Part shown: in pieces, positions 29,445 through 49,069 of the stretch
Numbering within the stretch: the stretch's first letter is position 1
Layout of the letters: each line of letters begins with the position of its first letter
NCBI GenBank assembly: GCA_028687275.1
Contig: JAQUAK010000001.1
Coordinates: 36,213 to 100,212, forward strand
From: Patescibacteria group bacterium
Lineage (GTDB): Bacteria; Patescibacteriota; Patescibacteriia; Patescibacteriales; UBA12465
Length of the DNA stretch: 64,000 nt
Reading direction: 5' to 3'
Notes under the pieces: model-generated
What the model was told of the DNA's origin: nothing
The model's database searches: none
Seen by the model: the letters and a program-made list of their open reading frames with translations, nothing else
Translations under genes and position numbers: made by a program

Positions 29445-30197
29445 TTATTGCGCTAACAGGCCGTCAAGGATGTTGGTGAAATATTCTTCTGGGTAATGGC
29501 CAGTAATTTTGTAGCGATTAATAAACCAAGTGGGAGTACCAGATAATCCTAGCAGTTCAGCGTCAGAAAAATCATCATTAAGACGGTATAAATAAGTTTT
29601 TTCATCCAGACAAGTGGAGAAATCAGTGGTGTTCAATTTAAGCTCACCGGATAAGTTTTTTAATTTATCTGTTAGGGCGGTGCCGGCTAGAGGTATTAGT
29701 TCATCTTGCCTAGCAAAAAGTAAATCATTCATTTCCCAAAATTTATTTTGCACGCCAGCACAATTACCGGCTAAGGCTAATTCAATTGAGTTGGTGTGTA
29801 GAGGGTAGTCACGAAAGGTAATGCGAATACTATCACCATATTTATTAGCTAAATTACGCACAACCGGAGCCGATTCTTTACAATAGGGGCAAGCATAGTC
29901 AGAAAAAATGACAATTTTTATCTTGGCATTAATTGGCCCTAGGCTATAGTTTTCTCCTCGGCCATCAATCGCTTGTGTAATTTTCTGTATTTCCGCGTCT
30001 TGATTAAGCTCTGTTTGATTGTTTTGAATATCTTTAACTTGACTAATAACATAATTAGTCGATGCGATTATGACCAATAAAATAATTAATCCTAAAATGA
30101 TGGCAATTATCCCCCACCATTTTTTATACCAAGGGCGGAGCTTATTTTTATGCCTGCCTTTCATTTCTAAATATTCAATGCGTTCATTTAAACTCAT
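29445..30197 (-). CDS. Membrane-anchored DsbA-like thiol:disulfide oxidoreductase
   Basis: N-terminal TM 'WWGIIAIILGLIILLVIIAS'. Thioredoxin-fold active site 'CPYC' in 'FSDYACPYCKE'. DsbA-like C-terminal 'GTPTWFIN'. Ends 14 nt upstream of porG. Confidence 0.8.
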   Translation of the reverse strand: MSLNERIEYLEMKGRHKNKLRPWYKKWWGIIAIILGLIILLVIIASTNYVISQVKDIQNNQTELNQDAEIQKITQAIDGRGENYSLGPINAKIKIVIFSDYACPYCKESAPVVRNLANKYGDSIRITFRDYPLHTNSIELALAGNCAGVQNKFWEMNDLLFARQDELIPLAGTALTDKLKNLSGELKLNTTDFSTCLDEKTYLYRLNDDFSDAELLGLSGTPTWFINRYKITGHYPEEYFTNILDGLLAQ

Positions 30198-33525: not shown

Positions 33526-34380
33526 ATGGAAAATATTGCTGCTAAAACTAAAGAACTTTGTCGTATTTATGATATCAAGCCTGCTCGCAGCAAGGGCCAG
33601 AATTTTCTAATTAATGACGGTATTTATAAAGCGATTGTAAATGCTGCTAAAATAGATGAGAAAGACACGGTACTTGAAGTGGGTCCAGGGCTTGGTTTTT
33701 TAACAGCTGAACTTTCTAAAAGGGCGGCGCGAGTGATCGCAGTTGAGCTAGATGATAAGTTGGCTGGTATTTTGACGATTGCGATTGATTCTCAGGGAGT
33801 AGAAAATGTAGAGATAATTAATCAAGATATTTTAAACTTTAATCCAGCGGAACATTTTTCGACTGATGAACCTTATCGTATTGTTGCCAACTTACCTTAT
33901 AACATAACCTCCATTTTTTTACGTACTTTTTTAACTTCAGCGCGTCCACCAAAATCATTAGTTGTGATGTTGCAAAAAGAGGTGGCAGAAAGAATCATTA
34001 CGACCGCGCCTGATATGACCATGTTGTCTTTATCAGTACAGTACTATGGCGCTCCAAGTATTGTTAAGATTGTTCCAGCTTCGGATTTTTGGCCAGCGCC
34101 AGCCGTAGATAGTGCGATTTTGCATTTTTCTTATAATCGCCCCATGCCCACTCCAGAATCATTAGCGATTGATAAAAATTTTTTTCGGATTGCTCGTATT
34201 GGCTTCAGTGCTAAACGTAAAATGATGAAAAATAATTTAATGGGAGGGCTAAAATTAAGTGCTGAGAAGGTTGAAAAAGCTTTGTTGGAGGCGGATATTG
34301 ATTTAAAGACTCGGGCTGAAGATTTAAGCTTAGAAAAATGGCAGCGTTTAGTTGCGAGCATCACTCCTTTTGTGTTATAA
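33526..34380 (+). CDS. rsmA: 16S rRNA (adenine1518/1519-N6)-dimethyltransferase RsmA/KsgA
   Basis: 'KGQNFL', SAM motif 'VLEVGPGLGFLT', 'ANLPYNITS'. Confidence 0.93.
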   Translation: MENIAAKTKELCRIYDIKPARSKGQNFLINDGIYKAIVNAAKIDEKDTVLEVGPGLGFLTAELSKRAARVIAVELDDKLAGILTIAIDSQGVENVEIINQDILNFNPAEHFSTDEPYRIVANLPYNITSIFLRTFLTSARPPKSLVVMLQKEVAERIITTAPDMTMLSLSVQYYGAPSIVKIVPASDFWPAPAVDSAILHFSYNRPMPTPESLAIDKNFFRIARIGFSAKRKMMKNNLMGGLKLSAEKVEKALLEADIDLKTRAEDLSLEKWQRLVASITPFVL

Positions 34381-34429
34381 TTTTAGTAATCTAGTTTTTC
34401 TCGTTGTTAATAAAACGCTAAGATTACTT

Positions 34430-35074
34430 ATGCCTAAAAATTTAAATGACCCATTAAATAATGAGAATCGTCCCTCATTTTTAAAAAGTTTACCCAAACC
34501 ACAACGGATTGCTTTTTTAAGCTTGTCTGTTATCAGTTTGGGTATTATTGTTTTATGGGTTTGGCAATTTAATAATCGCCTTTCTAGCCCTTTTTATATA
34601 CCTACAAATCAGCAGTCTAACATTACTACTGATACCAGTGAATTTGAAATTGCTTTACTAAATTTCGACACTGATAGTGATGGCTTAACTGACACGGAAG
34701 AAAGAAGCCTGTATGGCACATCGCCTTATTTAGAAGATACCGATAGTGACGGAATTTCTGATCGTGAGGAAATTGAAAATGGTACTGATCCTAATTGTGC
34801 TACTGGTCAAGATTGTAGCGGCGCCATTGCAGTTACTCCTACTGTTAGTACAACTACGATAGTGACTTTGCCGAGTAACGACACCGCTATGAGTGATAGT
34901 GGCAGTGAGGATAATTTACAGCTCATGATGTCTGGACAGGCTGATGTAGCTCAATTGAGAGCTTTGTTACTTGATAGCGGGGCTGATGCTACCATGTTAC
35001 AGCAATTAAGTGATGAGGAATTACTTAAAGCCTATCAGGAAATGTTGGCTGGTCAAGAGACTAGCGCTCAATAG
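34430..35074 (+). CDS. Membrane-anchored protein with thrombospondin type-3-like Ca-binding repeats
   Basis: The track ORF starts at 34352, inside rsmA. ATG34430 (MPKNLND) is more plausible. TM 'IAFLSLSVISLGIIVLWVW'. Two 'DTDSDG(L/I)(T/S)D.EE' repeats at nt ~34661-34800. Confidence 0.65.
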   Translation: MPKNLNDPLNNENRPSFLKSLPKPQRIAFLSLSVISLGIIVLWVWQFNNRLSSPFYIPTNQQSNITTDTSEFEIALLNFDTDSDGLTDTEERSLYGTSPYLEDTDSDGISDREEIENGTDPNCATGQDCSGAIAVTPTVSTTTIVTLPSNDTAMSDSGSEDNLQLMMSGQADVAQLRALLLDSGADATMLQQLSDEELLKAYQEMLAGQETSAQ

Positions 35075-35115: not shown

Positions 35116-38100
35116 ATGAAAAACCGATCAAACTCTTTTTTCACACGGCAAAAAGTAGTCAGTCTGATTATTTTGTCTTTTTTTGCTACCTCACTTTTTG
35201 TCTTAGCTCCAAGTCCTGTAAATGCACAGACTGATGCTAACCAGGCGGTGAATAACGTGTTAACACCAATTTGGGCCTTTCTTAAGAAGGCTTATGAAAA
35301 GGGAGGTGCTTCAGCTTTTCAAAAAACTGTTAGAACCGCTTTAAATAAAGTTGCTTTTGATACCGCTACTTGGCTTGGCTCTGGCAAAGAGGGCCAAAAA
35401 CCAATGTTTGTTGATAATTTCTGGGGTTATATTGGAAGTATTGGCGATGAGGCTGCCGGCCAGTTTATTGAAGATGCGGTTAGTAATTGGAACAGAAATG
35501 ATTGGGATAATAGTGAGTCTGATAAAACTGCTTGTCAACAACCATATGCTCAATGTTTAGCTAGCTGTGACCCTGAATTTAGCTCTACTCCTCTGGATGA
35601 AGAGGATGATTGTAAAAATAAATGTAATTCTACTTACGCTACCTGTTTAAATAAATCATCAATTGATGCTGGTGGAACTACGACAACTGGTCGTGATGGT
35701 GTTACTAGTCGACAGTCTAATAATACAGTGTCCGTTTGTCAGCCATCATCCATTGACGCTAAGTTAAGAATTGCCATGGGCTTAGTTGATTATAATCGTC
35801 CTCAGGCTCCAAACTGTAGCGCCTCGGAGTTGATTAGTAATTGGGGCGATTATGCTGAACGCATGACTGCTTTTAAAGATCCAGATTTTTTAGATAATTT
35901 TTCTAATCTTTTCAATCCAGTTTCTAATGATTTGGGTATTTATTATACCCTACGCACGGACATGACTAAGACTATAGATGATAATTTGATAAAGACTGAA
36001 AAGAAGTTGATTGCCGACGGTGGTTGGTTGGATATGCAAGATATTGCTGGTAATTTGGTAGGAATGCCTGGTGATGCGGAAACTAAAGCAGAGATAGCTG
36101 AACAGGGATATATCAATAATATGGCGACTTTCTCCGGAGACGCTTTAATTGACGCGGCTAATGTTTTCTTGAACCAATTAGCTATGACTGCCTATAGTAA
36201 GTACATGAGTAATTTAGGTAAAGTTGCTTCTAGTAATAGTTCAAGTATAAATAATCCGAATTCTGACCCTAATATTCGCTACGGTGAGGCAGCTGTTAGA
36301 GAAAGCGCCGCTAGTATTATTGAGCCTGACTTTGGCGTTAGAGCTGATTACGATATTTTATCAACTTTAAGCATGTGTCGTGATCGTGAAAATCCAGGAC
36401 CAACTGACTGCGTGATTGATGATAAGTTAATGCAAGCAATTACTGAGAAGAAAACTGTGGCCGAGGCGGTAAAAGATGGCTATTTACATAAAAATTGGTT
36501 ATTTAGTACTGATTATCTCGAGGGTAATTATAATTTGCGTAACTTAGAAATTATGCGCAAATATCGCTTGATTCCGGTTAGTTGGGAGGTGGCCGCCGCC
36601 GCCAATAAACAGGCCAGCTTAATTGATTTGATATCTTGCTTTAGTGCTAGTGATGATTATAACGAGTATAGTTCTAACTTTAATGTTGGTAATCAGACTT
36701 GGTGTCGAAATTTAGTCGATCCTAATTGGGTCTTAAAAGCACCTTTAAATTATTGCGCTAAGCAGGGCTATAGTGCTCAAATTTTTGATATTTCCGTTAT
36801 CCCAACTGGAATTGACGGGCAGGCTGATACTATTCAAATTACTCGTGCGGATGATTACTGCGCCGATGAGCAAAGCTGTATTCAAGAACGGGCTGATGGT
36901 AGTTGCGAAGCTTATGGTTATTGTCAGTCGGAGAGACGTACTTGGAGTTTTGATTCTAAATCATGTGAGCCGATTAACAATACTTGTAGTTCCTTTATTA
37001 ACACTAGCAGCAATCAACGTACTTCCTATTTAGAAAATACTTTAGATTATGCTAATTGTAATGCTGATAGCGTCGGTTGTAAGCGTTATTCTTTGTTTGG
37101 CATTTATGATACTGACAGTGGGCAGGTTAATTGGTCTGAGAGTACTAATAATAGTACCTATTTTAATAATAATTTAAGTAATTGTTCTCCAACTGATGAA
37201 GCTTGCACTGAAATGATTAGAGTAAAACCAGGCTGGGGTTTGAATTTAGTTATGGGAGCTGATTTTGCTAATGATAATATTGGCGATGCCATGAATAATT
37301 CACAGATAAATAAGTATTGGAATATTTGGTCGCCTGGTAATAAGGAGGCAGAAATTATTAGCGCCTCTGATTTAGATAGTAACTATAGTGGTAAAGTTTT
37401 ATTTTTAAAGTCGGCGAGCAATGCCGCTAGCTCGACTATAGGAGTTTTTTCTGATAACGCCGTGTCTCTAATCCCTGCCAATTTTAATATCTTATCCGAT
37501 GAAACCTATACTTTAAGTGCTGATGTCTATATTCAGAGTGGAGATAAGGTGCATCTTGTTTTAGGGGGTGATTATTTAGCGGCGGTAGAGACTCGCGATC
37601 AGGGTGTTTGGCGACATATTTCCGTCACTCGTAACCTTAAAGACAAACCTCTCTCAGAAATGGATTTCTCAGTGGTTGGTTATAGTAATGGCTCTGAAGT
37701 TGCTTTTGGGGTTAGAAATATAAAACTTGAAATGACCGCTTGGGACTCTGGTTTTTCTAATTATGGTAGCTTCAAAGTTTATGAGCAATTAATACCTTCT
37801 TATTTAGCAAGTGCTTGTTATGTGAATGCTGATCCAGGCAGCCCTGATTATCGTTTAAAAACTGACGCGCCTTCAATTTGTAAGGATTATGCTCGTCAAT
37901 GTAATCGTGAAGAGGTTGGTTGCGAGAGTTATAAAGAAGCTAGTACTGGCTTTACAGTAGCAGCGCAGGCAGTTTCTTCAGATTATTGTGACGCAAGTTG
38001 CAATGGTTATGATTTATATGTCTCTAAGTCTAGTTATTTCTATTCTCCATATGCCGAAAAAATGATTCCAGAAAATAGTAATGTTTGTGGAGCTGAAGCG

Positions 38101-41100
38101 GCTGGCTGTAGTGAATTCACTAATTTAGATGCAGTCGCTGCTGGCGGCGAAGGCTTAGAATATTATACTGAATTAAAACAATGTATTAAGCCTAGCGACA
38201 GTTGTGCGGATTTCTATACTTGGGTTGGCACCGAAGAAAGCGGCTATCAGTTAAAGACATTATCCTTAAAGAAGGATAATAGCGGAAACCCAGCCGTGAC
38301 AACTGATGATTCTCAGATTTGCAATCAAGCAATCTTTAATTTAACTCCTGACGACCCTAATTTTAATGCGGATTGTCGTCAGTTTTATAATAAAGCGGGT
38401 AATATTTCTTATCACTTATCTGCTTACACTATTACTTGCTCAGAAAATTGTCATGCCTATCGTTTGACGGAAAATAATATTGATAGCACTGTCAGTCAAG
38501 CTAATTGTAGTGGTAGTGATCGTTCTTGGAATGCAAGCAGCTCTGTCTGTTATGTTTGTAAAAATGGTGGCATTTGGAGTGGACAGGATCAAGCTTGTGT
38601 ATATCAAGCTATACCAAATGAAGGTAAGAAATGTTCCGCCCGCCAGAATGGTTGTCGTGAGTATAATGGCAGCTTAGGCAACAATATCAGAATGATTGGT
38701 GTTTATAGTTTTGAAAACGGCTTAGACGGTTGGGTGGGGCAGTGCGGAGATGCTGCTATGAGCTCGCAGGTGGTCAACACTAATAATGGACGCTCTCTTT
38801 TATATGATAGAGGTGCTAATATTAATGGTTCCACACAAGCAACTGACTGTGAAGGTTCTAGTGCTTCTTGGTTAGATAAATTCTTGACTGGCGCCAATGC
38901 TAGCTTTGCTCACATTAGCAAGACTCTTGGTTCTAGTGTTGTCCAAGGAGGAGCTTATAATATTAAATTTACCGCTAGTGCCTCTGCTAATACTAATGTG
39001 CAAGTAGCCTTAATGAATGGCCAGGGAGAATTAAGTTATTTCAATACCAGCGATATCAATGCTAATGGTAGTTTTATAGTTAGCGGTGATAACGAATGGC
39101 GTACTTATGAATTAAATTTATCCAACCTAAATCATACAGTTGATAGCAAGGAGACTCTGGTAGTTATGGCGGATCGTGATTTTTACTTAGATAACTTTAT
39201 TTTGACGGCTATTACCGACCGTTATTACTTAATTAAAAATACGAGTAATATTCCTGATGTTTGTTACTATGATATGCTTGATAATTATCAAGGATCTGAC
39301 TATAACTTAGGCTGTTCTCTCTACCATGATCGCGCTGGCAGTAATCATTATTTACGTCAATTTAGTAATTTGTGCCAAGATTCAGCTGTTGGTTGCGAAT
39401 TAATGATTAATACTGCTAACTATAATGATTACAAGTCCGGTATTTGGCAGGATACAAATGATAATGGGGCTTGTGATACCGGTGAAGAGGAGTGTGTTAA
39501 GGTTAATGGTGATAGCTTCTTCTACGCTATTTATGATGAATCTAAGCGCTGTAATAGTGCTGATTTAGGTTGTTCTCGTTTAGGCGAATCTTTATCAACT
39601 GGTACTAATTACGATTGGAGCGATGTCTTTAAACGTAATAATCCAAATAACTACGATAAGACTTTATGTGCAGCAGCTGACGCTGGTTGTGAGGCCTGGA
39701 ATTATGCCGATGGCTCAGGTATTTCCTATTTCAAGAATCCAGGTAGTGATGCCTGTGTCTACCGTATTAGTTCTGATCCTACTAGACCAGGCAAGGCTTG
39801 GTATAAGGTTCCGGTCATGCGTTGTGATTTAGACAGTAGTGGTAAAATTGATGGCACTGAGATTGGCAAGCCAATTTGCGCTACTAATTCCGATTGTACC
39901 AATAACAGTGCTTGTCTAGTTGATAATAACGATTATGATTGCCCAGTCTCCTATTTTAAAACTTTTGGGTTTGGTGGCGGTGGTAATCAAGTGCCAACTC
40001 CATCGGAGTCAGCTGCTTTGTGTGAGTCCGCTAATTCTGGTTGTAGTGAATATATTGACCCAGTCAGCATCTTTGCTGAAAATGTAATTTTGGATCCAGC
40101 TAGGGAAAATGGTAGTAGTAGTTGGAGCGGTAATCCTCCTCAACAAAATATTGTGATTGAGCCTAATAAAGTTTATATTTTTTCTGTTAATGCTCCAGAA
40201 AGTTTAGTGTCCATGGATTTTAATGTCAGAATCACTTTTCCAGTCGGGGTTTATGTTTTACAAGAAGATAATAATTTGAGTACTATTGCTAGCACTACTC
40301 TAACAATTCCGTCTGAACAACCTAGTAAGAGAATAATGTTCCATTCTCGTACTAATACAAGCGCCACTGTTAGTGGGGCGTCATCTAATTATGAAATTCT
40401 ATTAAAAGCAGCCGTTTTAGATTATCAGTTTAAACAAAATATTGATAAGACTAGTTGTAATGGTATCGTTAATTTCGATAACGGCTGCGTCTTGTTTAAT
40501 GAGCGTTCCATAAATGGTGCACAAGGAGTATTGTCTTTAAGCGGCGGCTGGAATGCGGCTGCTAGTAAAGATGGTCAAACCCCCGTCTTATGTAGTAGTG
40601 GTGATTGTAGCGCTAATCAATTGATTAAAGTTCGTCCTGATCGCGTTTGTTCTTCTTGGCTTGATTGTTTAACCTATGCCATTAACCCTGAAACACAGGA
40701 GAAAACTTGCTATGCCCTTGGTTTATGTAATCAATTAAATGACAATAATGAATGTAGTAATTTTGTTGCTACGACTGAGGTTAAATTGCCAAGTAACGAT
40801 GTTAATATTAATAAATTGACTGGCTATTCTTTATTGAATAAATATAATTTAGCCTCAATGAAGGAGGTTGGTTTAAATACAGGCGCACATTATAATTTTG
40901 AAGCCGGCACTCAGTCGCTAGATTGTAAGAATGATCTTGGTGGTAGTTGCGTCTTTGATCAAGGCTTAGTAGCTGATAGTATTATTAATTCGCCAAATAA
41001 TTCGCCAACTGATTATCCAGCTGAAGGAGCTGCTTATTTACGCGTCATGGTTGGTCAACAGACATCTCCACATTCAGTTAATTCACCAATAAGCGTTCAG

Positions 41101-43323
41101 TCTGGTCAAGATTATTATTTAAATTATTTAGTTAATACTAAGGGTAGTGGCTACGAAGCTAAGGTTTCTATTTATGATAACGCTCGCTTAAACTCTGACG
41201 CTATAGCCACCGCCACTTCCAGCGCTACTAATGGTTGGGAGCGTAAAGTCTTTAAATTTAATGTGGCACCTTCTACTAAATCAATTAACATCTACTTAGG
41301 TGCTAACAATGTTGATAATAAAGAGGAGCGCTATGTCTATTTTGATGACATTAACATTGAGCCAGTTTTGCAAGTAGCAAATAATGAATATGTTGCTAAG
41401 GAGTGTCGTTTGTATCCAAGTCAGGATGCAACCTCTTGTACTAGTAAGAATAGTCAGGTGGTAAGTGATGGTTTAGTTGGTTATTGTTTGCAACACGACC
41501 CAGCTAATAGCGATGTGTGTTTGGTCTGGTATCCAGTTGATGAAATTAGTTCGGCTTCTAAATCGGGCCGCTCTAATCTTGGTTATCAAGGAGCTTTCCC
41601 CTTAAATTATTGTACTCAGGCTAATGGTAATTTTGATTTAGTAGAAAAAAGAATTTCAATTAGATTAGATGATGCTCATAGCACGGATGAAAATGAATGG
41701 GGGGATGATAAGTGTGTAATTTCACCTGGGTGTGCCGGAGATCAGAATTATAATACAATGATTGAGCTTAATAATGGCGATGTTTCAGCCTGGCTTCGTG
41801 TTTATTGCGTCCCTGATCCAAACAAACTTCTATTTGTTACTAGTAAAAAATTGTTTGGCGGCGCGGACGCTTGTAGAGATAAATATTTATATGAGGGTTG
41901 GGGAGTTTATGATGGCTTAAAATATATTCAGTCAGGACAGTATATACCTGATAATTGTGGTAATAATTGTGATGTTCATTGCGAGACGGGCACTTGTAAA
42001 AACTTAGATGAAGCAACGTCAGTCAATCCAAATATTCGAGTCTTTAATTATGATTATCCAACTGTTGACGAAGAACAGCTTAAATTAATTTCCTCTTCTG
42101 ATCCAGATGATGCGTTCTATCCAACCTGCAATCAGTTTGTACAAGTAGTTGATGCTGCTGGTAATAATAAAGCTTGGACGGGTCGTACTAGCAAAACCAG
42201 TATCTATCCTTTTAACACGCCTCTATTCTTCCGTTACAACAACACTTATTATGGGCCGGGCTGTTATTTGGAGGGTGCGGGTGAGTGTATGGAATACTGT
42301 ACTTGTGATAATGGTTGTGTCTGTGACCCTATTCATGGTGATCATTGCCAAGGTTCTTGTGCAGGCAAGCTTGTCGGTGACTGTAAGTATTATGCTGGCG
42401 CACCAGTATCTTGTGATACGCCTGGAGCAATCCCTTATCCCGGTGGCTCTGATTTTAATATGACTGCCTATGGTCGTAATCGAAGCTTAGTGCCATTTGG
42501 TGCCGCCACTTTTCCAGATAACTTTAATATTTTAGCTAGTGAACCGGTTAAGTTTTTGAATCAATATTCTAGTAAGATTGATCAAAAAACTTTTGCGGGC
42601 AGACCCTATGGCTGTTCCGGCGTTGGTTGTGATAACATTGGTTATTGCAGTTTAAATCCAAATGTAATGTGTCTGCTCGATACCACTACTAGTGCCAATA
42701 CTTCTTTAGTCAATCAAAAATCTTGTGGTAGCTCTAATGGCACCTGTATTCCTTTATGGAACGGTGACAATATTTCGACTGATACTAGTTTTAAAGCAGA
42801 TAATGTTTTGAGGAATATCTTCAATACGTCTTTTGGTGAATTTAACTATAATAATCAACTTGGTACTTATGATAATATGAGTGGTAATAATTACCCGGTT
42901 ATTTATACGGATGATTATACTCCTACCGTACGATGCTCTACAATAAATAATCATTTATCTACAAATGATGGCAATTATAATACTTATAACTGTGCTATTT
43001 GGCCACGTGTTAGTAGTGTTAAGTTAGATGGCTTTAATGTTCCCACAACTATTAATCCTGGCATTCACGTCTTAAGCTTTAATACCATTGTTGACACCGA
43101 ACAACAACCACTAAAGGACTTAATTATTGATTGGGGAGATGGCTCAGTTCAAAATCTTGTTAATCAAGATCATCATCCAGATGCTAACTCGCCACATAAG
43201 GTTTATCATTATTATGCTAATAGTGTTAATAACGCTGCCATTAAGATTAAAGTAACTGATAATTGGAACACCTTCTGTTGTGTAAGGAATAATAGCTCTT
43301 GCAGCGCTGCTAACTGTCCTTAA
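35116..43323 (+). CDS. Giant (2735 aa) secreted cysteine-rich multidomain surface protein with a C-terminal PKD-like domain
   Basis: Uninterrupted 8.2-kb ORF. Signal peptide '...LFVLAPSPVNA/QT'. About 110 Cys by hand count. Recurrent C-x5-G-C-x2-[YFWLM] motif. Four segments that look like CBM4/9-type beta-sandwiches ('FENGLDGW...YLDNFIL', 'NFEAGT...YFDDINIEP'). 'DWGDGS' PKD hallmark at nt 43129-43146. Confidence 0.8.
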   Translation: MKNRSNSFFTRQKVVSLIILSFFATSLFVLAPSPVNAQTDANQAVNNVLTPIWAFLKKAYEKGGASAFQKTVRTALNKVAFDTATWLGSGKEGQKPMFVDNFWGYIGSIGDEAAGQFIEDAVSNWNRNDWDNSESDKTACQQPYAQCLASCDPEFSSTPLDEEDDCKNKCNSTYATCLNKSSIDAGGTTTTGRDGVTSRQSNNTVSVCQPSSIDAKLRIAMGLVDYNRPQAPNCSASELISNWGDYAERMTAFKDPDFLDNFSNLFNPVSNDLGIYYTLRTDMTKTIDDNLIKTEKKLIADGGWLDMQDIAGNLVGMPGDAETKAEIAEQGYINNMATFSGDALIDAANVFLNQLAMTAYSKYMSNLGKVASSNSSSINNPNSDPNIRYGEAAVRESAASIIEPDFGVRADYDILSTLSMCRDRENPGPTDCVIDDKLMQAITEKKTVAEAVKDGYLHKNWLFSTDYLEGNYNLRNLEIMRKYRLIPVSWEVAAAANKQASLIDLISCFSASDDYNEYSSNFNVGNQTWCRNLVDPNWVLKAPLNYCAKQGYSAQIFDISVIPTGIDGQADTIQITRADDYCADEQSCIQERADGSCEAYGYCQSERRTWSFDSKSCEPINNTCSSFINTSSNQRTSYLENTLDYANCNADSVGCKRYSLFGIYDTDSGQVNWSESTNNSTYFNNNLSNCSPTDEACTEMIRVKPGWGLNLVMGADFANDNIGDAMNNSQINKYWNIWSPGNKEAEIISASDLDSNYSGKVLFLKSASNAASSTIGVFSDNAVSLIPANFNILSDETYTLSADVYIQSGDKVHLVLGGDYLAAVETRDQGVWRHISVTRNLKDKPLSEMDFSVVGYSNGSEVAFGVRNIKLEMTAWDSGFSNYGSFKVYEQLIPSYLASACYVNADPGSPDYRLKTDAPSICKDYARQCNREEVGCESYKEASTGFTVAAQAVSSDYCDASCNGYDLYVSKSSYFYSPYAEKMIPENSNVCGAEAAGCSEFTNLDAVAAGGEGLEYYTELKQCIKPSDSCADFYTWVGTEESGYQLKTLSLKKDNSGNPAVTTDDSQICNQAIFNLTPDDPNFNADCRQFYNKAGNISYHLSAYTITCSENCHAYRLTENNIDSTVSQANCSGSDRSWNASSSVCYVCKNGGIWSGQDQACVYQAIPNEGKKCSARQNGCREYNGSLGNNIRMIGVYSFENGLDGWVGQCGDAAMSSQVVNTNNGRSLLYDRGANINGSTQATDCEGSSASWLDKFLTGANASFAHISKTLGSSVVQGGAYNIKFTASASANTNVQVALMNGQGELSYFNTSDINANGSFIVSGDNEWRTYELNLSNLNHTVDSKETLVVMADRDFYLDNFILTAITDRYYLIKNTSNIPDVCYYDMLDNYQGSDYNLGCSLYHDRAGSNHYLRQFSNLCQDSAVGCELMINTANYNDYKSGIWQDTNDNGACDTGEEECVKVNGDSFFYAIYDESKRCNSADLGCSRLGESLSTGTNYDWSDVFKRNNPNNYDKTLCAAADAGCEAWNYADGSGISYFKNPGSDACVYRISSDPTRPGKAWYKVPVMRCDLDSSGKIDGTEIGKPICATNSDCTNNSACLVDNNDYDCPVSYFKTFGFGGGGNQVPTPSESAALCESANSGCSEYIDPVSIFAENVILDPARENGSSSWSGNPPQQNIVIEPNKVYIFSVNAPESLVSMDFNVRITFPVGVYVLQEDNNLSTIASTTLTIPSEQPSKRIMFHSRTNTSATVSGASSNYEILLKAAVLDYQFKQNIDKTSCNGIVNFDNGCVLFNERSINGAQGVLSLSGGWNAAASKDGQTPVLCSSGDCSANQLIKVRPDRVCSSWLDCLTYAINPETQEKTCYALGLCNQLNDNNECSNFVATTEVKLPSNDVNINKLTGYSLLNKYNLASMKEVGLNTGAHYNFEAGTQSLDCKNDLGGSCVFDQGLVADSIINSPNNSPTDYPAEGAAYLRVMVGQQTSPHSVNSPISVQSGQDYYLNYLVNTKGSGYEAKVSIYDNARLNSDAIATATSSATNGWERKVFKFNVAPSTKSINIYLGANNVDNKEERYVYFDDINIEPVLQVANNEYVAKECRLYPSQDATSCTSKNSQVVSDGLVGYCLQHDPANSDVCLVWYPVDEISSASKSGRSNLGYQGAFPLNYCTQANGNFDLVEKRISIRLDDAHSTDENEWGDDKCVISPGCAGDQNYNTMIELNNGDVSAWLRVYCVPDPNKLLFVTSKKLFGGADACRDKYLYEGWGVYDGLKYIQSGQYIPDNCGNNCDVHCETGTCKNLDEATSVNPNIRVFNYDYPTVDEEQLKLISSSDPDDAFYPTCNQFVQVVDAAGNNKAWTGRTSKTSIYPFNTPLFFRYNNTYYGPGCYLEGAGECMEYCTCDNGCVCDPIHGDHCQGSCAGKLVGDCKYYAGAPVSCDTPGAIPYPGGSDFNMTAYGRNRSLVPFGAATFPDNFNILASEPVKFLNQYSSKIDQKTFAGRPYGCSGVGCDNIGYCSLNPNVMCLLDTTTSANTSLVNQKSCGSSNGTCIPLWNGDNISTDTSFKADNVLRNIFNTSFGEFNYNNQLGTYDNMSGNNYPVIYTDDYTPTVRCSTINNHLSTNDGNYNTYNCAIWPRVSSVKLDGFNVPTTINPGIHVLSFNTIVDTEQQPLKDLIIDWGDGSVQNLVNQDHHPDANSPHKVYHYYANSVNNAAIKIKVTDNWNTFCCVRNNSSCSAANCP

Positions 43324-45847: not shown

Positions 45848-46420
45848 ATGCCTCTTGATGATCAATTGATTCGCAATCAAACAGATACGACCAATGAACC
45901 CGATAGTAGCGCTGATAAGGCTGGGGCTCTGAATCGAGCTAAGCGCGGTGAGCTTGAAGGTGGAGAGGCAACTGATTTCCGTTCTAGTCGTATGAGTGCC
46001 ATCAGAGCTAAGGCGGGTAAGTTGAAGGCCAAGTTATCAATTGGACAGAAAAGTTTTAGTGCTGCTACTAGCAAAATACTTCAATCAGCCTGGCGTAATA
46101 TAGTTATAAGTTTCGGTTTTTCATTTCTCTATGTCTATGCTCACTTATTTTTGCAACAAATTTTTGGCAAGAATCTCTTTGCTCCACTGGGCTCAGAATG
46201 GCGTGATCGTCCTGGCTTAACAATCGAGGAGAGAGAAAGAATGGGTGTGCCTTTTAAATTAATGGAATCGTTTGGAGTTGGTTGTTTAACTATTGTTCTA
46301 CTGATTGCTATAATTTTTGCCTTTTCCATACCAGCCTTAATTATTGAGGTGGTTACAAATCCTTTACGTACTTTTGTTTCATTTTTTAAAGAATTTTTTA
46401 GCTGGTTAACGGGCAGCTAG
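45848..46420 (+). CDS. Hypothetical membrane protein, first gene of T4SS-like block 1
   Basis: Polar, basic, probably disordered N-terminal ~75 aa, then 2-3 hydrophobic helices. Lies 15 nt upstream of the VirB6-like gene. Confidence 0.5.
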   Translation: MPLDDQLIRNQTDTTNEPDSSADKAGALNRAKRGELEGGEATDFRSSRMSAIRAKAGKLKAKLSIGQKSFSAATSKILQSAWRNIVISFGFSFLYVYAHLFLQQIFGKNLFAPLGSEWRDRPGLTIEERERMGVPFKLMESFGVGCLTIVLLIAIIFAFSIPALIIEVVTNPLRTFVSFFKEFFSWLTGS

Positions 46421-46435
46421 ATACTAGCTTAATTT

Positions 46436-49069
46436 ATGAGCTTAAAAATATTTAATTTTTTGAAAAAATATAAACTAGTTTTACTAGTTCTTTTAGTTTT
46501 TTCGCTTAGTTTTGTTATCGCTCCATCCTCTTTAGCTGGCACCTTCGGTGATTGGGCGGGGGAAGTGGTGGGCGGTATTATTTATGTCTTTATCTGGACC
46601 CTTGGGCTAGTTTTAATCTTAGTCATGAAGGGCTTATTACTTATCGCCACTTATCAGAATTTTATTAATTCGGGTGCTGTTATAGAAGGTTGGGTGGTGG
46701 TGCGTGATTTGGCCAACATGTTCTTTGTGGTGATTCTCTTAGTTATCGCTTTCGCCACTATTTTACACTTAGAAGAATATAATTATAAGAAATGGCTACC
46801 AAAATTAATTTTGATGGCTGTTTTGATTAATTTTTCTAAAACAATTTGTGGTTTAATGATTGATGTCGCTCAGATTATCATGTTGACCTTTGTTAATGCC
46901 TTTAAGGATGTGGCGGGAGGTAATTTGGTTGATATGCTTGGCATTAAATCAATTGTGACTATCGCTAACGAAAGTGATGACATCGGCTTTTGGGCGATTG
47001 TTGGCGCCTATATTCTAGGTCTGATATATATGATTGTGGCCTTAGTCGTTATTACCACCATGATGATGGTCTTGGTAATGCGCCTAGTCATGATTTGGAT
47101 ATATGTTGTTTTATCGCCTCTAGCTTATCTATTATCAGCTTTTCCTGGTGGACAAAGCTATGCTAAGGAATGGTGGAGCGAGTTTATTAAAAATTTAGTG
47201 GTTGGACCAGTCTTAGCTTTTTTTATTTGGCTCTCCTTTGCCGCCCTACAGACAGGTTCATATAGTACTATTAATGATGTAGTGGGCTCATCAGCAACTT
47301 CAACGGAGGAGTCCTCTGCCTTTGCCAACTCTATTAGTGGTAATGCTAGTGGTTCTAATAAAGCGGGTATGGCGACAGAAGCATCTACTCCTGGCGTTTT
47401 AATTAAATTCGTGATTGGCATTGGCATGTTAATTGGTGGTTTAAAAATTTCTCAACAGATTGGTGGTGCCGCTGGTTCGGTGGCAGGCAAGGGGATGAGT
47501 CAGCTCTCATCTATGGGCGCAGCTACAGCTGGATTTAGTAAGAAATGGGCGGGCAAGATTGTCAGCGGAGATAACATGCTTGCTCGTAAGACAATGAAGG
47601 GTGCTGGCTTTGACTTTAGGCCAACTTCAATCGTTACAGCTATTAAGGCTGGTTATAATAAAACCAAGCAGGATGATAATGATGAGATTAGGACTAAGGG
47701 TGTTAAAAATCTAGATAGAGGAGGATTCAGGGCTGTTTTGGGGGGCGTTGGTGCTGGTCAAGATTGGGCAGATAACTATACTAGTGGATTCTTAGGCTTA
47801 AAGGGAGTGGCCCATGGAATTAGAGAAATGACGGCGCGCCCAATTATGCGTAAAGTGAAAGGTAAGCAATTAGATGAAGAGCAAGCACAGTTGGAAACAT
47901 TAAAAGATGAGAGGGAAACATATATTACCACCAAAGATCATGCGGCCGAGCAAACCTCTATTAATGATAAAAAGAAGGACGTGTCTGCCATGGATAGAGA
48001 TATAAATGATATTAATATACGTATTAGTTCTGGCACTTCACAGGCTGGTGACAGTGAGAAGCTTAAGCAAATGCAAACAAAAAGAGATGAGGTTCAACAG
48101 AGCGTGGATGATAGGCAAAAGAAATTGGACGGTCGTACCGTGGATGATGCTAAATATGATGAGTATAGCGATAAGATTACCGCACAAGAGGCCTCCGTTA
48201 ACAATACTAAGGAGAGTCTTTCTCGTATTGCCACTCCTAAGGCTCTTGAAAGTCGTGGTGAATATCGTAAAATTATTAATGATCGTAAGGCTAAGTATAA
48301 GGATGTTACTAACTCAGACGAATTACTTCAATTATATGAAGACGCAGTTAGAAGAAAGAATAAGTTCGATCAGGTGGCTATTGTGGAGAAGCTTTCTAAT
48401 GACGGCAACTTAAATGAAATTCTAAGAACCAAGGGCTACGCCTCCAATGCTGTCGGCATGGTGTCTTTCTTGAATAATGATAAGAATGAAAAGGGTGAGA
48501 GGAAGGGTCTTAATGCTGGTCTTGGTGGTCAGGAGATTTTGCAATTACAAAATGATTTATCTGAGTCAGAAGAAAGAGTTGGTCATTGGGAAATGGCTAA
48601 AACAGTCGGTGTTAATGCTCATGGTAAGATGGAAAGCTTAGTTAAGAAGAAGACTAGCAATGGCAATGTTGAGAAAGATGCAAATGGTAAAGAGGTTTGG
48701 GATGACGAGCAGCATGTAATTGCGGCTGCATCTGAGGTGGCTAAAATGGATCCACAGAAAGTCGTTATTCAGCTCAATCGCTTAGCTTATGGAGGAGAGG
48801 ATGCTAATGGTAAGTTTAAACTGTCAAATTTAGGTAAAGTTTTGGTTAAAATGCTTGATCAAAATGGTACTTTTAAGGCACAGGAAGGTAGAATAAATCA
48901 AAATATTGCTGTTAACTTAACCTCAGGTGATACTTTGGATGAACTTATAAAGATGGGTATTAGCAAGATTAGTTTGGATTCTTTGCAAAAGAGAGGCAAC
49001 CCTGATGGTCAATCTTTAGATCCGGCTATTATTATTGATGCCTTAAAAAAAGCCGGTTATATTTCATAA
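46436..49069 (+). CDS. VirB6/TrbL-like polytopic membrane protein with a ~500-aa soluble charged (coiled-coil-looking) C-terminal extension
   Basis: Signal/anchor plus about 6-7 TM helices in aa 1-350, with the loose VirB6/TrbL pattern ('FFVVILLVIAFATIL', 'LMIDVAQIIMLTFVNAF', 'MVLVMRLVMIWIYVVLSPLAYLLSAFPG'). The C-terminal half is rich in K/E/D/Q heptad-like sequence. Confidence 0.6.
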   Translation: MSLKIFNFLKKYKLVLLVLLVFSLSFVIAPSSLAGTFGDWAGEVVGGIIYVFIWTLGLVLILVMKGLLLIATYQNFINSGAVIEGWVVVRDLANMFFVVILLVIAFATILHLEEYNYKKWLPKLILMAVLINFSKTICGLMIDVAQIIMLTFVNAFKDVAGGNLVDMLGIKSIVTIANESDDIGFWAIVGAYILGLIYMIVALVVITTMMMVLVMRLVMIWIYVVLSPLAYLLSAFPGGQSYAKEWWSEFIKNLVVGPVLAFFIWLSFAALQTGSYSTINDVVGSSATSTEESSAFANSISGNASGSNKAGMATEASTPGVLIKFVIGIGMLIGGLKISQQIGGAAGSVAGKGMSQLSSMGAATAGFSKKWAGKIVSGDNMLARKTMKGAGFDFRPTSIVTAIKAGYNKTKQDDNDEIRTKGVKNLDRGGFRAVLGGVGAGQDWADNYTSGFLGLKGVAHGIREMTARPIMRKVKGKQLDEEQAQLETLKDERETYITTKDHAAEQTSINDKKKDVSAMDRDINDINIRISSGTSQAGDSEKLKQMQTKRDEVQQSVDDRQKKLDGRTVDDAKYDEYSDKITAQEASVNNTKESLSRIATPKALESRGEYRKIINDRKAKYKDVTNSDELLQLYEDAVRRKNKFDQVAIVEKLSNDGNLNEILRTKGYASNAVGMVSFLNNDKNEKGERKGLNAGLGGQEILQLQNDLSESEERVGHWEMAKTVGVNAHGKMESLVKKKTSNGNVEKDANGKEVWDDEQHVIAAASEVAKMDPQKVVIQLNRLAYGGEDANGKFKLSNLGKVLVKMLDQNGTFKAQEGRINQNIAVNLTSGDTLDELIKMGISKISLDSLQKRGNPDGQSLDPAIIIDALKKAGYIS

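Follow-up and report, generated by a model that had tools for sequence, protein, structure and literature searches.

A Recurrent Two-Cysteine Motif Specific to a Giant Protein Family of Patescibacteria

An 11-residue motif, C-x5-G-C-x2-[YFWLM], recurs non-randomly in a giant protein encoded in the window (the whole 64-kb stretch of DNA analyzed). The motif Cys are absolutely conserved, the motif is restricted to a single protein family, and in its variable copies the two Cys are gained or lost as a pair. The best explanation, to which we assign a probability of about 0.6, is a structural role peculiar to this family, in which intramotif disulfide loops staple the connectors of a giant secreted or surface protein.

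The Giant Protein and Its Motif Copies

The motif-bearing open reading frame (ORF; window positions 35116-43323, + strand) translates to 2735 aa, 110 of which (4.0%) are Cys, and its product is identical to NCBI MAG protein PHE20_00340 (“Patescibacteria group bacterium”). The predicted signal peptide comprises a basic n-region, a hydrophobic stretch (VVSLIILSFFATSLFVLA) and a site between VNA and Q, with residue A37 invariant across 30 orthologs; read by eye, it suggests that the giant protein is secreted or displayed at the surface.

35116..35226, + strand: predicted Sec signal peptide or N-terminal anchor, aa 1-37, read from sequence

Members of this uncharacterised family are about 2,400-3,450 aa long and occur in 415 GTDB species genomes, among Falkowbacteria, Buchananbacteria, and related Patescibacteria. 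Cys is the best-conserved residue class of the giant protein (mean column identity 0.85). Aromatic residues at position +3 after Cys are enriched across its whole length.

A regex scan of the translated ORF returned exactly eight strict matches, whose sequences and positions agree with those listed in an earlier note on this DNA:

37057..37089, + strand: strict copy 1, CNADSVGCKRY, aa 648; C648, G654 and C655 in 229/229 homologs, Y658 in 223/229
37900..37932, + strand: strict copy 2, CNREEVGCESY, aa 929; both Cys in 229/229 homologs
38086..38118, + strand: strict copy 3, CGAEAAGCSEF, aa 991; Cys and Gly in 229/229 homologs, F1001 in 228/229
38632..38664, + strand: strict copy 4, CSARQNGCREY, aa 1173; adjoins beta-sandwich domain 2 on its N-terminal side
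39373..39405, + strand: strict copy 5, CQDSAVGCELM, aa 1420; regex and homolog alignment
39550..39582, + strand: strict copy 6, CNSADLGCSRL, aa 1479; regex and homolog alignment
39667..39699, + strand: strict copy 7, CAAADAGCEAW, aa 1518; regex and homolog alignment
40021..40053, + strand: strict copy 8, CESANSGCSEY, aa 1636; N-terminal to a beta-rich region, aa ~1650-1780

Strict copy 2 is preceded by C922, giving C-x6-C-x6-C. Three relaxed variants that the same note had named were likewise found, at aa 690, 1023, and 1453, and the relaxed and variant copies are as follows:

36964..36996, + strand: relaxed copy CEPINNTCSSF (Thr for Gly), aa 617; both Cys in 229/229 homologs
37183..37215, + strand: relaxed copy CSPTDEACTEM, aa 690; adjoins beta-sandwich domain 1 on its N-terminal side
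38182..38214, + strand: relaxed copy CIKPSDSCADF, aa 1023; regex and homolog alignment
39472..39504, + strand: relaxed copy CDTGEEECVKV, aa 1453; two Cys gained or lost together across homologs
40924..40956, + strand: C-x7-C variant CKNDLGGSCVF, aa 1937; N-terminal to the Pfam CBM_4_9 domain, Cys covary

At aa 690, Gly stands before the second Cys in 210/229 homologs. A further C-x6-C-x2-hydrophobic match, CGSSNGTCIPL, lies at aa 2537.

Recurrence and Repeat Character

The strict motif occurred on average 0.06 times, and at most three times, in 20,000 composition-preserving shuffles, none of which reached the eight copies observed; the frequency is thus far above that expected of a sequence of the same composition. 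Shuffling gave 4.4 C-x6-C pairs (17 observed) and 1.0 relaxed motifs (13 observed). Gly precedes the second Cys in 8/17 C-x6-C pairs (p = 9e-6), and a hydrophobic or aromatic residue follows at +3 in 8/8 (p = 1e-6). Six-frame translation of the 64-kb window revealed no strict motif in other frames or genes.

Copies lie 26-250 residues apart with no regular head-to-tail period. As proposed earlier, they do not form a nucleotide-level tandem repeat: TRF found no tandem array in the giant gene, and DNA-level likeness between copies came down to a single 15-nt match (GCSEF vs. GCSEY). A solenoid or beta-helix tandem repeat protein was rejected on the lack of a tandem array and the copy spacing of 26 to 247 residues. 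Pooling the copies gave the consensus L-C-[SN]-A-x-x-[VA]-G-C-[ERS]-E-[YFWLM], and the loop residues are kept at each site while differing among sites (CNADSAGC at 648 vs. C.DSAVGC at 1420). In hhalign comparisons, in-register profile-profile similarity among copies covered only about 11-31 columns (probability ≤92%). Copies 690, 1173, and 1636 align mutually in register over 29-38 columns that take in the opening strand of the next domain (probabilities 6-68%), with copy 1636 matching copy 690 in register and at the start of that domain. The “module” of the earlier note is a genuine, non-random recurrent element, but the term is generous for similarity of only about 11-22 columns around the motif.

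Conservation and Pairing of the Cysteines

Across the eight strict copies, not one of the 16 Cys is missing from any full-length homolog (229/229), even at ~25% identity, and the motif Gly is kept in 175 to 229 of the 229, depending on site. The +3 residue is site-specific in the homolog alignment and always hydrophobic or aromatic. When a 32-column motif profile was run against 1.84 billion proteins, the best 150 of the 760 matches were all members of the giant-protein family, most with 7-10 copies; a scan of this kind had been suggested with the original observation.

Two sites vary across homologs. Both Cys of 1453/1460 are present in 154, neither in 70, and only one in 5 (phi 0.95), and each changes about 28 times on a rough tree; the corresponding counts at 1937/1945 are 125, 101, and 3 (phi 0.97). 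Within each pair, each Cys is the reciprocal best covarying partner of the other; the Fisher statistics ignore phylogeny. Because all surrounding Cys are invariant, the Cys of these two pairs should bond only to each other, and their joint gain and loss argues indirectly for an intramotif disulfide. Strict copies never vary, so the argument is carried over to them by analogy.

Bonding outside the motif is the first alternative. Disulfides would then link neighboring copies or regions in a ladder of ~30-residue units (617/648/690, 991/1023, 1420/1453/1479/1518), or form an intermolecular lattice or cross-links to a partner. Copies often occur in runs 26-42 residues apart, which suits such a ladder, and covariation in the N-terminal block of six Cys runs across a hairpin (140 with 177, 147 with 170) despite its C-x6-C spacings. 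The C-x6-C pairs 140/147 and 170/177 thus probably bond across the hairpin and not within each pair, so this spacing alone is no proof of an intramotif bond. Low model confidence would also be natural for regions that need a larger context in order to fold. Against this, 1453/1460 and 1937/1945 are lost together beside invariant Cys, which under cross-pairing would strand unpaired partners, and copies 1173 and 1636 are isolated, with no neighboring copy as a possible partner. On balance we regard bonding outside the motif as unlikely.

Flanking Domains and Predicted Structure

The motif copies sit in Cys-rich stretches separating beta-sandwich domains, in keeping with the earlier description of a motif between larger domains. 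Three such domains were delineated:

37270..37752, + strand: beta-sandwich domain 1, CBM4/22-like, aa ~719-879 (AlphaFold and Foldseek)
38680..39222, + strand: beta-sandwich domain 2, CBM-like, aa ~1189-1369 (AlphaFold and Foldseek)
41023..41298, + strand: Pfam CBM_4_9 (PF02018), aa 1970-2061; 30.9 bits vs. gathering cut-off 25.9

Domains 1 and 2 were modelled by AlphaFold with pLDDT 75-89, domain 1 at 80-89, and matched the CBM22/CBM4 structures 4xuo, 4xup_E, 1dyo, and 2y6j in Foldseek (probability 1.00, TMt 0.6-0.7), so that, as modelled, both have the CBM4/CBM22 beta-sandwich (jelly-roll) fold. Domain 2 also has a weak profile match to the laminarinase CBM4 structure 1gui, and many orthologs likewise have precomputed PF02018 matches. 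The four CBM-like domains of the giant protein are highly diverged from one another. Copies 690, 1173, and 1636 stand directly N-terminal to the two modelled beta-sandwiches and to a third stretch read as one.

Confidence at the motif sites themselves was low: in neither AlphaFold model did any of the eight strict sites reach pLDDT 50. Copy 1453 is the only one inside a confidently modelled stretch. At 10/12 sites in both low-confidence models, the inter-Cys loop is irregular and a beta-strand begins from or just after the second Cys. The motif had been described as not assignable to a named repeat family, and our searches bear this out. Pfam and NCBIfam matched no named Cys-rich family in the whole giant protein, be it EGF-like, Myxococcus cysteine-rich repeat, TSP3, DPY, furin-like or another, and in 47 orthologous motif regions of 290 aa every Pfam match was sub-threshold noise. 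The best sub-threshold match was Dumpy_DPY (16.1 bits vs. cut-off 27) at C1588-C1600, away from the motif copies, and EGF_integrin appeared at E = 0.06 in 1/47 orthologs, sub-threshold and off the motif sites. Sequence and profile searches of the PDB with the motif or motif-rich region returned no match, and the best Foldseek E-value for the aa 1375-1665 model was 2.

The loops might alternatively be displayed for recognition, as site-specific peptides that bind a ligand on a host or prey surface, the disulfide doing no more than constrain the epitope. Residues conserved per site and different between sites are compatible with this, CBM-like domains fit an adhesive role, and attachment has been proposed for large Cys-rich extracellular CPR proteins (PMC4736985). 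Adhesin binding loops are, however, usually lineage-variable. The loops here are built from small side chains (Ala, Ser, Gly) and stay strongly conserved while overall identity ranges over about 25-80%, which is more typical of packing constraints; we therefore find a recognition function quite improbable.

Gene Neighborhood and Redox Setting

Two genes upstream of the giant gene bear on its surroundings:

29445..30197, − strand: membrane-anchored DsbA/thioredoxin-like oxidoreductase, CPYC active site; candidate disulfide catalyst
34352..35074, + strand: small transmembrane protein with a bacterial TSP3 (Ca-binding) repeat; PF18884, E = 7e-10

The DsbA-like gene lies 5 kb upstream of the giant gene and is also present in the syntenic locus of a 45%-identical ortholog; a preprint reports that MdbA-like oxidoreductases are enriched in CPR bacteria (bioRxiv 10.1101/335083). 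The TSP3 membrane-protein gene precedes the giant gene in 73/78 related loci, and in the loci examined the gene for this small membrane protein lies between ksgA and the giant gene. Pyruvate:ferredoxin oxidoreductase (POR) genes in the window make the organism look anaerobic, and the redox state at its surface is consequently uncertain.

This anaerobic-type metabolism, like the absolute invariance of the motif Cys, would suit reduced thiols that bind metal (Zn, Fe, or Cu) or serve as redox-active or sensor sites. A two-Cys site nevertheless falls short of the four ligands usual for structural Zn, the pooled profile has no accompanying conserved His or Asp, and no Pfam metal-binding domain was matched; C-x6-C is also, to our knowledge, not a known metal-binding spacing. 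With the signal peptide and the nearby DsbA-like oxidase also weighing against it, a metal or redox site appears very unlikely. Chance recurrence in a sequence that is simply rich in Cys, Gly, and Tyr, to which the 4% Cys and protein-wide +3 aromatics might point, is refuted by the shuffles (0/20,000 with eight copies) and by the positional conservation of every copy in 229/229 homologs.

For the intramotif disulfide loop, the following picture may be drawn. In each copy the two Cys, seven residues apart, would bond together and close a ring that spans eight residues and is built of small ones; the Gly that almost invariably precedes the second Cys would allow a tight turn. The second Cys would open a beta-strand, with the aromatic or hydrophobic side chain at +3 packing into the adjoining fold. 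The loops would thereby act as covalent staples that stiffen and protect the Cys-rich connectors, and those at aa 690, 1173, and 1636 may close off a CBM-like beta-sandwich at its N-terminal end. Bond formation would take place outside the cytoplasm, the putative catalyst being the DsbA/MdbA-like CPYC oxidoreductase with its membrane anchor, whose gene lies 5 kb upstream. Of the loop proposed in the earlier note, the disulfide closure gains indirect support from the invariant Cys, their coupled gain and loss, the signal peptide, and the nearby CPYC enzyme, while the bond at the strict sites is itself something we infer; the suggestion of a knot found no evidence.

Comparison With Known Systems

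EGF-like, laminin-EGF, and Dumpy DPY modules are likewise short disulfide-closed units between larger domains, thought to stiffen the very large secreted proteins of the extracellular matrix in which they occur. They pack 4-8 Cys into 20-45 residues, with several disulfides in a defined topology and units arrayed in tandem, whereas the C-x5-G-C motif is a single two-Cys loop (with a putative disulfide) of 11 residues at irregular spacing. The beta-helical antifreeze proteins of Tenebrio are solenoids of strict 12-residue tandem repeats (TCTxSxxCxxAx) with intra-coil disulfides. They resemble the proposed disulfide loop in a short-range Cys-Cys bond of similar span bracing a beta-rich, small-residue repeat, and differ in that our copies, 26-250 residues apart, have no tandem periodicity in DNA or protein. 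Likeness to CBM4, CBM9, and CBM22 (Pfam CBM_4_9, Foldseek) concerns the flanking domains and not the motif; we know of no such module with an N-terminal C-x5-G-C-x2-aromatic cap.

Another parallel is with the large Cys-rich extracellular proteins of Peribacteria, giant and signal-peptide-bearing, for which rigidity or attachment was proposed (Anantharaman et al., 2016, PMC4736985). Shared features are an origin in CPR bacteria, giant size, a signal peptide, several per cent Cys, and a disulfide-forming protein in the same genome, whereas the Peribacteria proteins belong to another lineage, have about 7% Cys, and are encoded in a multi-gene cluster (PMC4736985). Their reported likeness to Myxococcus Cys-rich repeats is only weak, and no C-x5-G-C motif was described (PMC4736985).

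Implications

The motif is a real, family-specific structural detail that brings no new mechanism. As a simple signature it makes one deeply conserved family of giant secreted proteins recognisable from sequence, predicts reliance on extracytoplasmic oxidative folding via the nearby DsbA/MdbA-like enzyme, and marks out fragments suited to mapping disulfides or solving structures. CPR/Patescibacteria are believed to spend their lives attached to other cells, yet almost none of their surface machinery has been characterised. More tentatively, the loop could be an undescribed mini-module and the signature of an uncharacterised giant envelope protein at the core of an episymbiont surface or host-contact apparatus; if so, eight invariant disulfide staples would let a chain of ~2,700 residues stand as a rigid extracellular structure.

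A Recurrent Cysteine Motif in a Giant Protein

A regular-expression scan of the window returned exactly eight strict copies of the motif C-x5-G-C-x2-[YFWLM], at the amino acid and nucleotide positions claimed for them in the earlier note, together with the three relaxed copies quoted there. All eight fall inside a single 2735-aa ORF (window 35116-43323, + strand), hereafter the giant protein, and six-frame translation showed no strict motif elsewhere in the 64-kb window. The copies, named here by the residue number of their first Cys in the giant protein, are 648, 929, 991, 1173, 1420, 1479, 1518, and 1636. Shuffled sequences of the same composition held a mean of 0.06 strict copies and none of 20,000 reached 8, so the motif is commoner than chance. 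As the earlier note said, the copies are not a nucleotide-level tandem repeat; no DNA tandem repeat was found in the gene.

The broader spacing is likewise over-represented: composition-preserving shuffles (20,000) predicted 4.4 C-x6-C pairs against 17 observed, and 1.0 copies of the relaxed form C-x6-C-x2-[YFWLMV] against 13 observed. In the giant protein the most frequent gap from one cysteine to the next is six. Gly precedes the second Cys in 8 of the 17 C-x6-C pairs (p = 9e-6), and in all eight of these Gly-bearing pairs the +3 residue, counted from the second Cys, is hydrophobic or aromatic (p = 1e-6). An aromatic residue at +3 is also enriched after cysteines across the whole protein (24 of 109, vs. 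a 10% background; p = 2e-4), which indicates that C-x-x-aromatic is general to this protein's disulfide-rich regions and not confined to the eight copies.

Conservation and Reach of the Motif

The giant protein has an identical counterpart, annotated as hypothetical, in a Patescibacteria MAG. Full-length homologs share 40-80% identity with it and measure ∼2,600-2,900 aa; where their source names them, they are called hypothetical. Remoter members (25-35% identity), among which is a Buchananbacteria protein, reach 3,450 aa. A GTDB scan found relatives in 415 species genomes, mainly Falkowbacteria or Patescibacteria where titles were informative, many titles being otherwise labeled or uninformative. 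Literature searches turned up no description of the family or the motif, only broad remarks about Cys-rich surface proteins of CPR bacteria and about MdbA-like oxidoreductases.

Cys is the residue class conserved most in the giant protein. Across 30 orthologs the cysteines of the 13 C-x6-C-x2-hydrophobic copies vary little or not at all, and an alignment of 229 full-length homologs retains all 16 strict-copy Cys in every sequence (229 of 229). The Gly of these copies is retained in 175-229 of the 229, depending on the site, and at +3 each site has its own characteristic residue (Y at 648, F at 991, M at 1420, L at 1479, W at 1518), in every case a hydrophobic or aromatic one. The pooled profile reads L-C-[SN]-A-x-x-[VA]-G-C-[ERS]-E-[YFWLM], with information limited to positions 0 to +10. 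When 53-residue windows centered on each copy were compared profile against profile, in-register matches covered just 11-31 columns, so the copies share only a short element. Three of them, 690, 1173, and 1636, mutually align over 29-38 columns, reaching the first strand of the next domain, which points to a loop joined to a first strand at the three domain starts concerned. Because an HMM built from the eight strict copies recovered only aa 617 among the relaxed ones, at ∼0-1 bits, the relaxed copies are tied to the strict ones by pattern and conservation rather than by profile score.

Searching 1.84 billion representative proteins (E ≤ 1e-3) with a 32-column profile, built from the eight copies in 12 orthologs, yielded 760 matches. 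The best 150 of these 760 were all homologs of the giant protein, either giant proteins themselves or apparent fragments, most with 7-10 matched stretches, and the 110 full-length proteins among those 150 averaged 7.8 strict copies. Scanning other proteins with the motif thus led back to the giant-protein family, and as far as seen among the best 150 of the 760 matches the motif is a signature of that family alone. As in the earlier note, it could not be assigned to a named repeat family: Pfam and NCBIfam scans detected no Cys-rich family, the motif region matched no Pfam family at all, and PDB searches by sequence and by profile, whether the query was a fragment, the full-family profile, or the 32-column motif profile, found nothing usable.

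Domain Layout and Structure Models

The N-terminus carries a predicted signal peptide in which a basic n-region and hydrophobic core precede the site VNA|Q, whose A37 is invariant among orthologs. In the Pfam scan CBM_4_9 alone exceeded threshold (aa 1970-2061), and the NCBIfam scan of the protein gave no match. An AlphaFold2 model of aa 540-1700 (28 sequences; mean pLDDT 53) was confident only for two beta-sandwiches, at aa ∼719-879 and ∼1189-1369, which resemble CBM22 and CBM4 modules (Foldseek, TMt 0.6-0.7). Motif copies sit in the Cys-rich stretches separating the beta-sandwich domains, and copies 690, 1173, and 1636, as well as the C-x7-C variant at 1937, each lie just N-terminal to a beta-sandwich or beta-rich domain.

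The earlier note had suggested inspecting predicted structures at the motif sites. All eight strict sites scored <50 in this model, as did those inside a second model of aa 1375-1665 (47 sequences; mean pLDDT 51); relaxed copy 1453 is the sole copy in a confident stretch (pLDDT 82-86). At 10 of 12 sites in these low-confidence models, DSSP assigns an irregular loop to the stretch separating the two Cys, at times with one helical turn, and a beta-strand bearing the +3 aromatic that begins at the second Cys or shortly beyond it. Foldseek of the motif-rich model (aa 1375-1665) against the PDB found no match (best E = 2). Elapor1, the top match of the longer model, aligned over 982 columns at an rmsd of 37 Å and was regarded as noise.

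Three further regions were observed. DLDSSGKIDGTE, at aa 1571-1582 (window ∼39826-39861), fits the canonical EF-hand Ca-binding loop D-x-D-x-S-G-x-I-x-x-x-E within a moderately confident model stretch, with weak Pfam EF-hand matches in 4 of 47 orthologs. A cluster of 10 Cys within ∼50 residues (CYLEGAGECMEYCTCDNGCVCDPIHGDHCQGSCAGKLVGDC...; aa 2383-2433, window ∼42262-42414), whose cysteines are present in only ∼10% of homologs, appears to be lineage-specific and lies where the protein varies most (aa ∼2200-2450). The well-conserved C-terminal ∼90 residues (aa ∼2640-2720, window 43000-43323; …IDWGDGS…HxYHYY…VTDNWN) look PKD-like by eye and had no Pfam match.

Gene Neighborhood

The neighbors of the giant gene are mostly housekeeping genes (leuS, rsmA/ksgA, gltX), with the following exceptions.

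Genes near the giant gene (window coordinates)
29445-30197, - strand: DsbA/thioredoxin-like protein, membrane-anchored at its N-terminus and with CPYC as active site, 5 kb upstream of the giant gene
34352-35074, + strand: small transmembrane protein with a bacterial TSP3 (Ca-binding) repeat (PF18884, E = 7e-10)
45848-46420, + strand: membrane protein, 190 aa, no Pfam match; homologs in 43 of 78 related loci, which span only 3 kb each side
46436-49069, + strand: membrane protein, 877 aa, several N-terminal TM segments, no Pfam match; in 36 of the same 78 loci of 3-kb flanks

The TSP3 gene directly precedes the giant gene, the two abutting or overlapping, and a homolog holds that place in 73 of the 78 related loci examined among the best matches; its true start is probably an internal Met (MPKNLNDP...). 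Theirs is a conserved gene pair, and the small protein may act as a partner in the membrane or as an anchor. A syntenic ortholog locus, 45% identical, preserves the order POR, DsbA-like, Exo_endo_phos, leuS, ksgA, TSP3 protein, giant gene, with a DsbA-like gene in the same position. Downstream, past gltX, the 190-aa and 877-aa membrane proteins may be part of the giant gene's envelope locus.

Cysteine Pairing and Alternative Readings

Invariance deprives the strict copies of any covariation signal; variation is found in the relaxed and variant ones. For 1453/1460, both Cys are present in 154 homologs, neither in 70, and a single one in 5; for 1937/1945 the counts are 125, 101, and 3. Each pair consists of reciprocal best covarying partners (phi 0.95 and 0.97, respectively), and on a rough UPGMA tree 1453/1460 changed state in concert ∼28 times. 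Since all surrounding Cys are invariant, the only available partner of each such Cys is the other one of its pair. Ortholog Cys counts are mostly even, and CPR bacteria are reported to be enriched in MdbA-like oxidoreductases (bioRxiv 10.1101/335083); together with the signal peptide and the DsbA-like CPYC neighbor, this is compatible with extracytoplasmic structural disulfides.

We favor, at a probability of about 0.6, a reading in which the two Cys of each copy bond to one another and close a ring of eight residues. The Gly before the second Cys would enable the turn, the +3 aromatic would anchor the strand that comes next, and the copies would jointly act as staples, both in the Cys-rich connectors and at the N-terminal ends of the CBM-like domains, in a very long extracellular protein. 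The earlier proposal of a disulfide-closed loop module between domains stands in part: the inter-domain Cys-rich setting and the covariation of relaxed pairs favor it, but a shared element of 11-31 columns is short for a module.

Cross-pairing between copies, or intermolecular disulfides, is unlikely. A symmetric six-Cys block, C140-x6-C147-x3-C151...C166-x3-C170-x6-C177 (window 35533-35646), occurs as a unit in about half of the 229 homologs; there 140 covaries with 177 and 147 with 170, so that C-x6-C spacing alone is no proof of an intra-pair bond. This block suggests an antiparallel hairpin with three disulfides, distinct from the C-x5-G-C motif. Constrained ligand-binding loops are a still less probable reading, metal or redox sites are improbable, the metal-binding reading having been weighed and rejected, and chance recurrence, rejected on the shuffles, is next to nil.

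Beta-helical antifreeze proteins carry intra-coil disulfides, comparable to the loop proposed here, and EGF-like and DPY modules are, as proposed for the motif, small disulfide-stabilized spacers within large extracellular proteins. The motif belongs to none of these families, however: it has no HMM match, is a single two-Cys loop, and is irregularly spaced. The motif finding is real and cleanly delimited, yet it is a structural detail, of a protein for which we infer a surface, attachment or envelope function from its CBM-like domains, its EF-hand-like loop, its conserved Ca-binding TSP3 membrane partner, and the precedent of large Cys-rich surface proteins in Peribacteria (PMC4736985).
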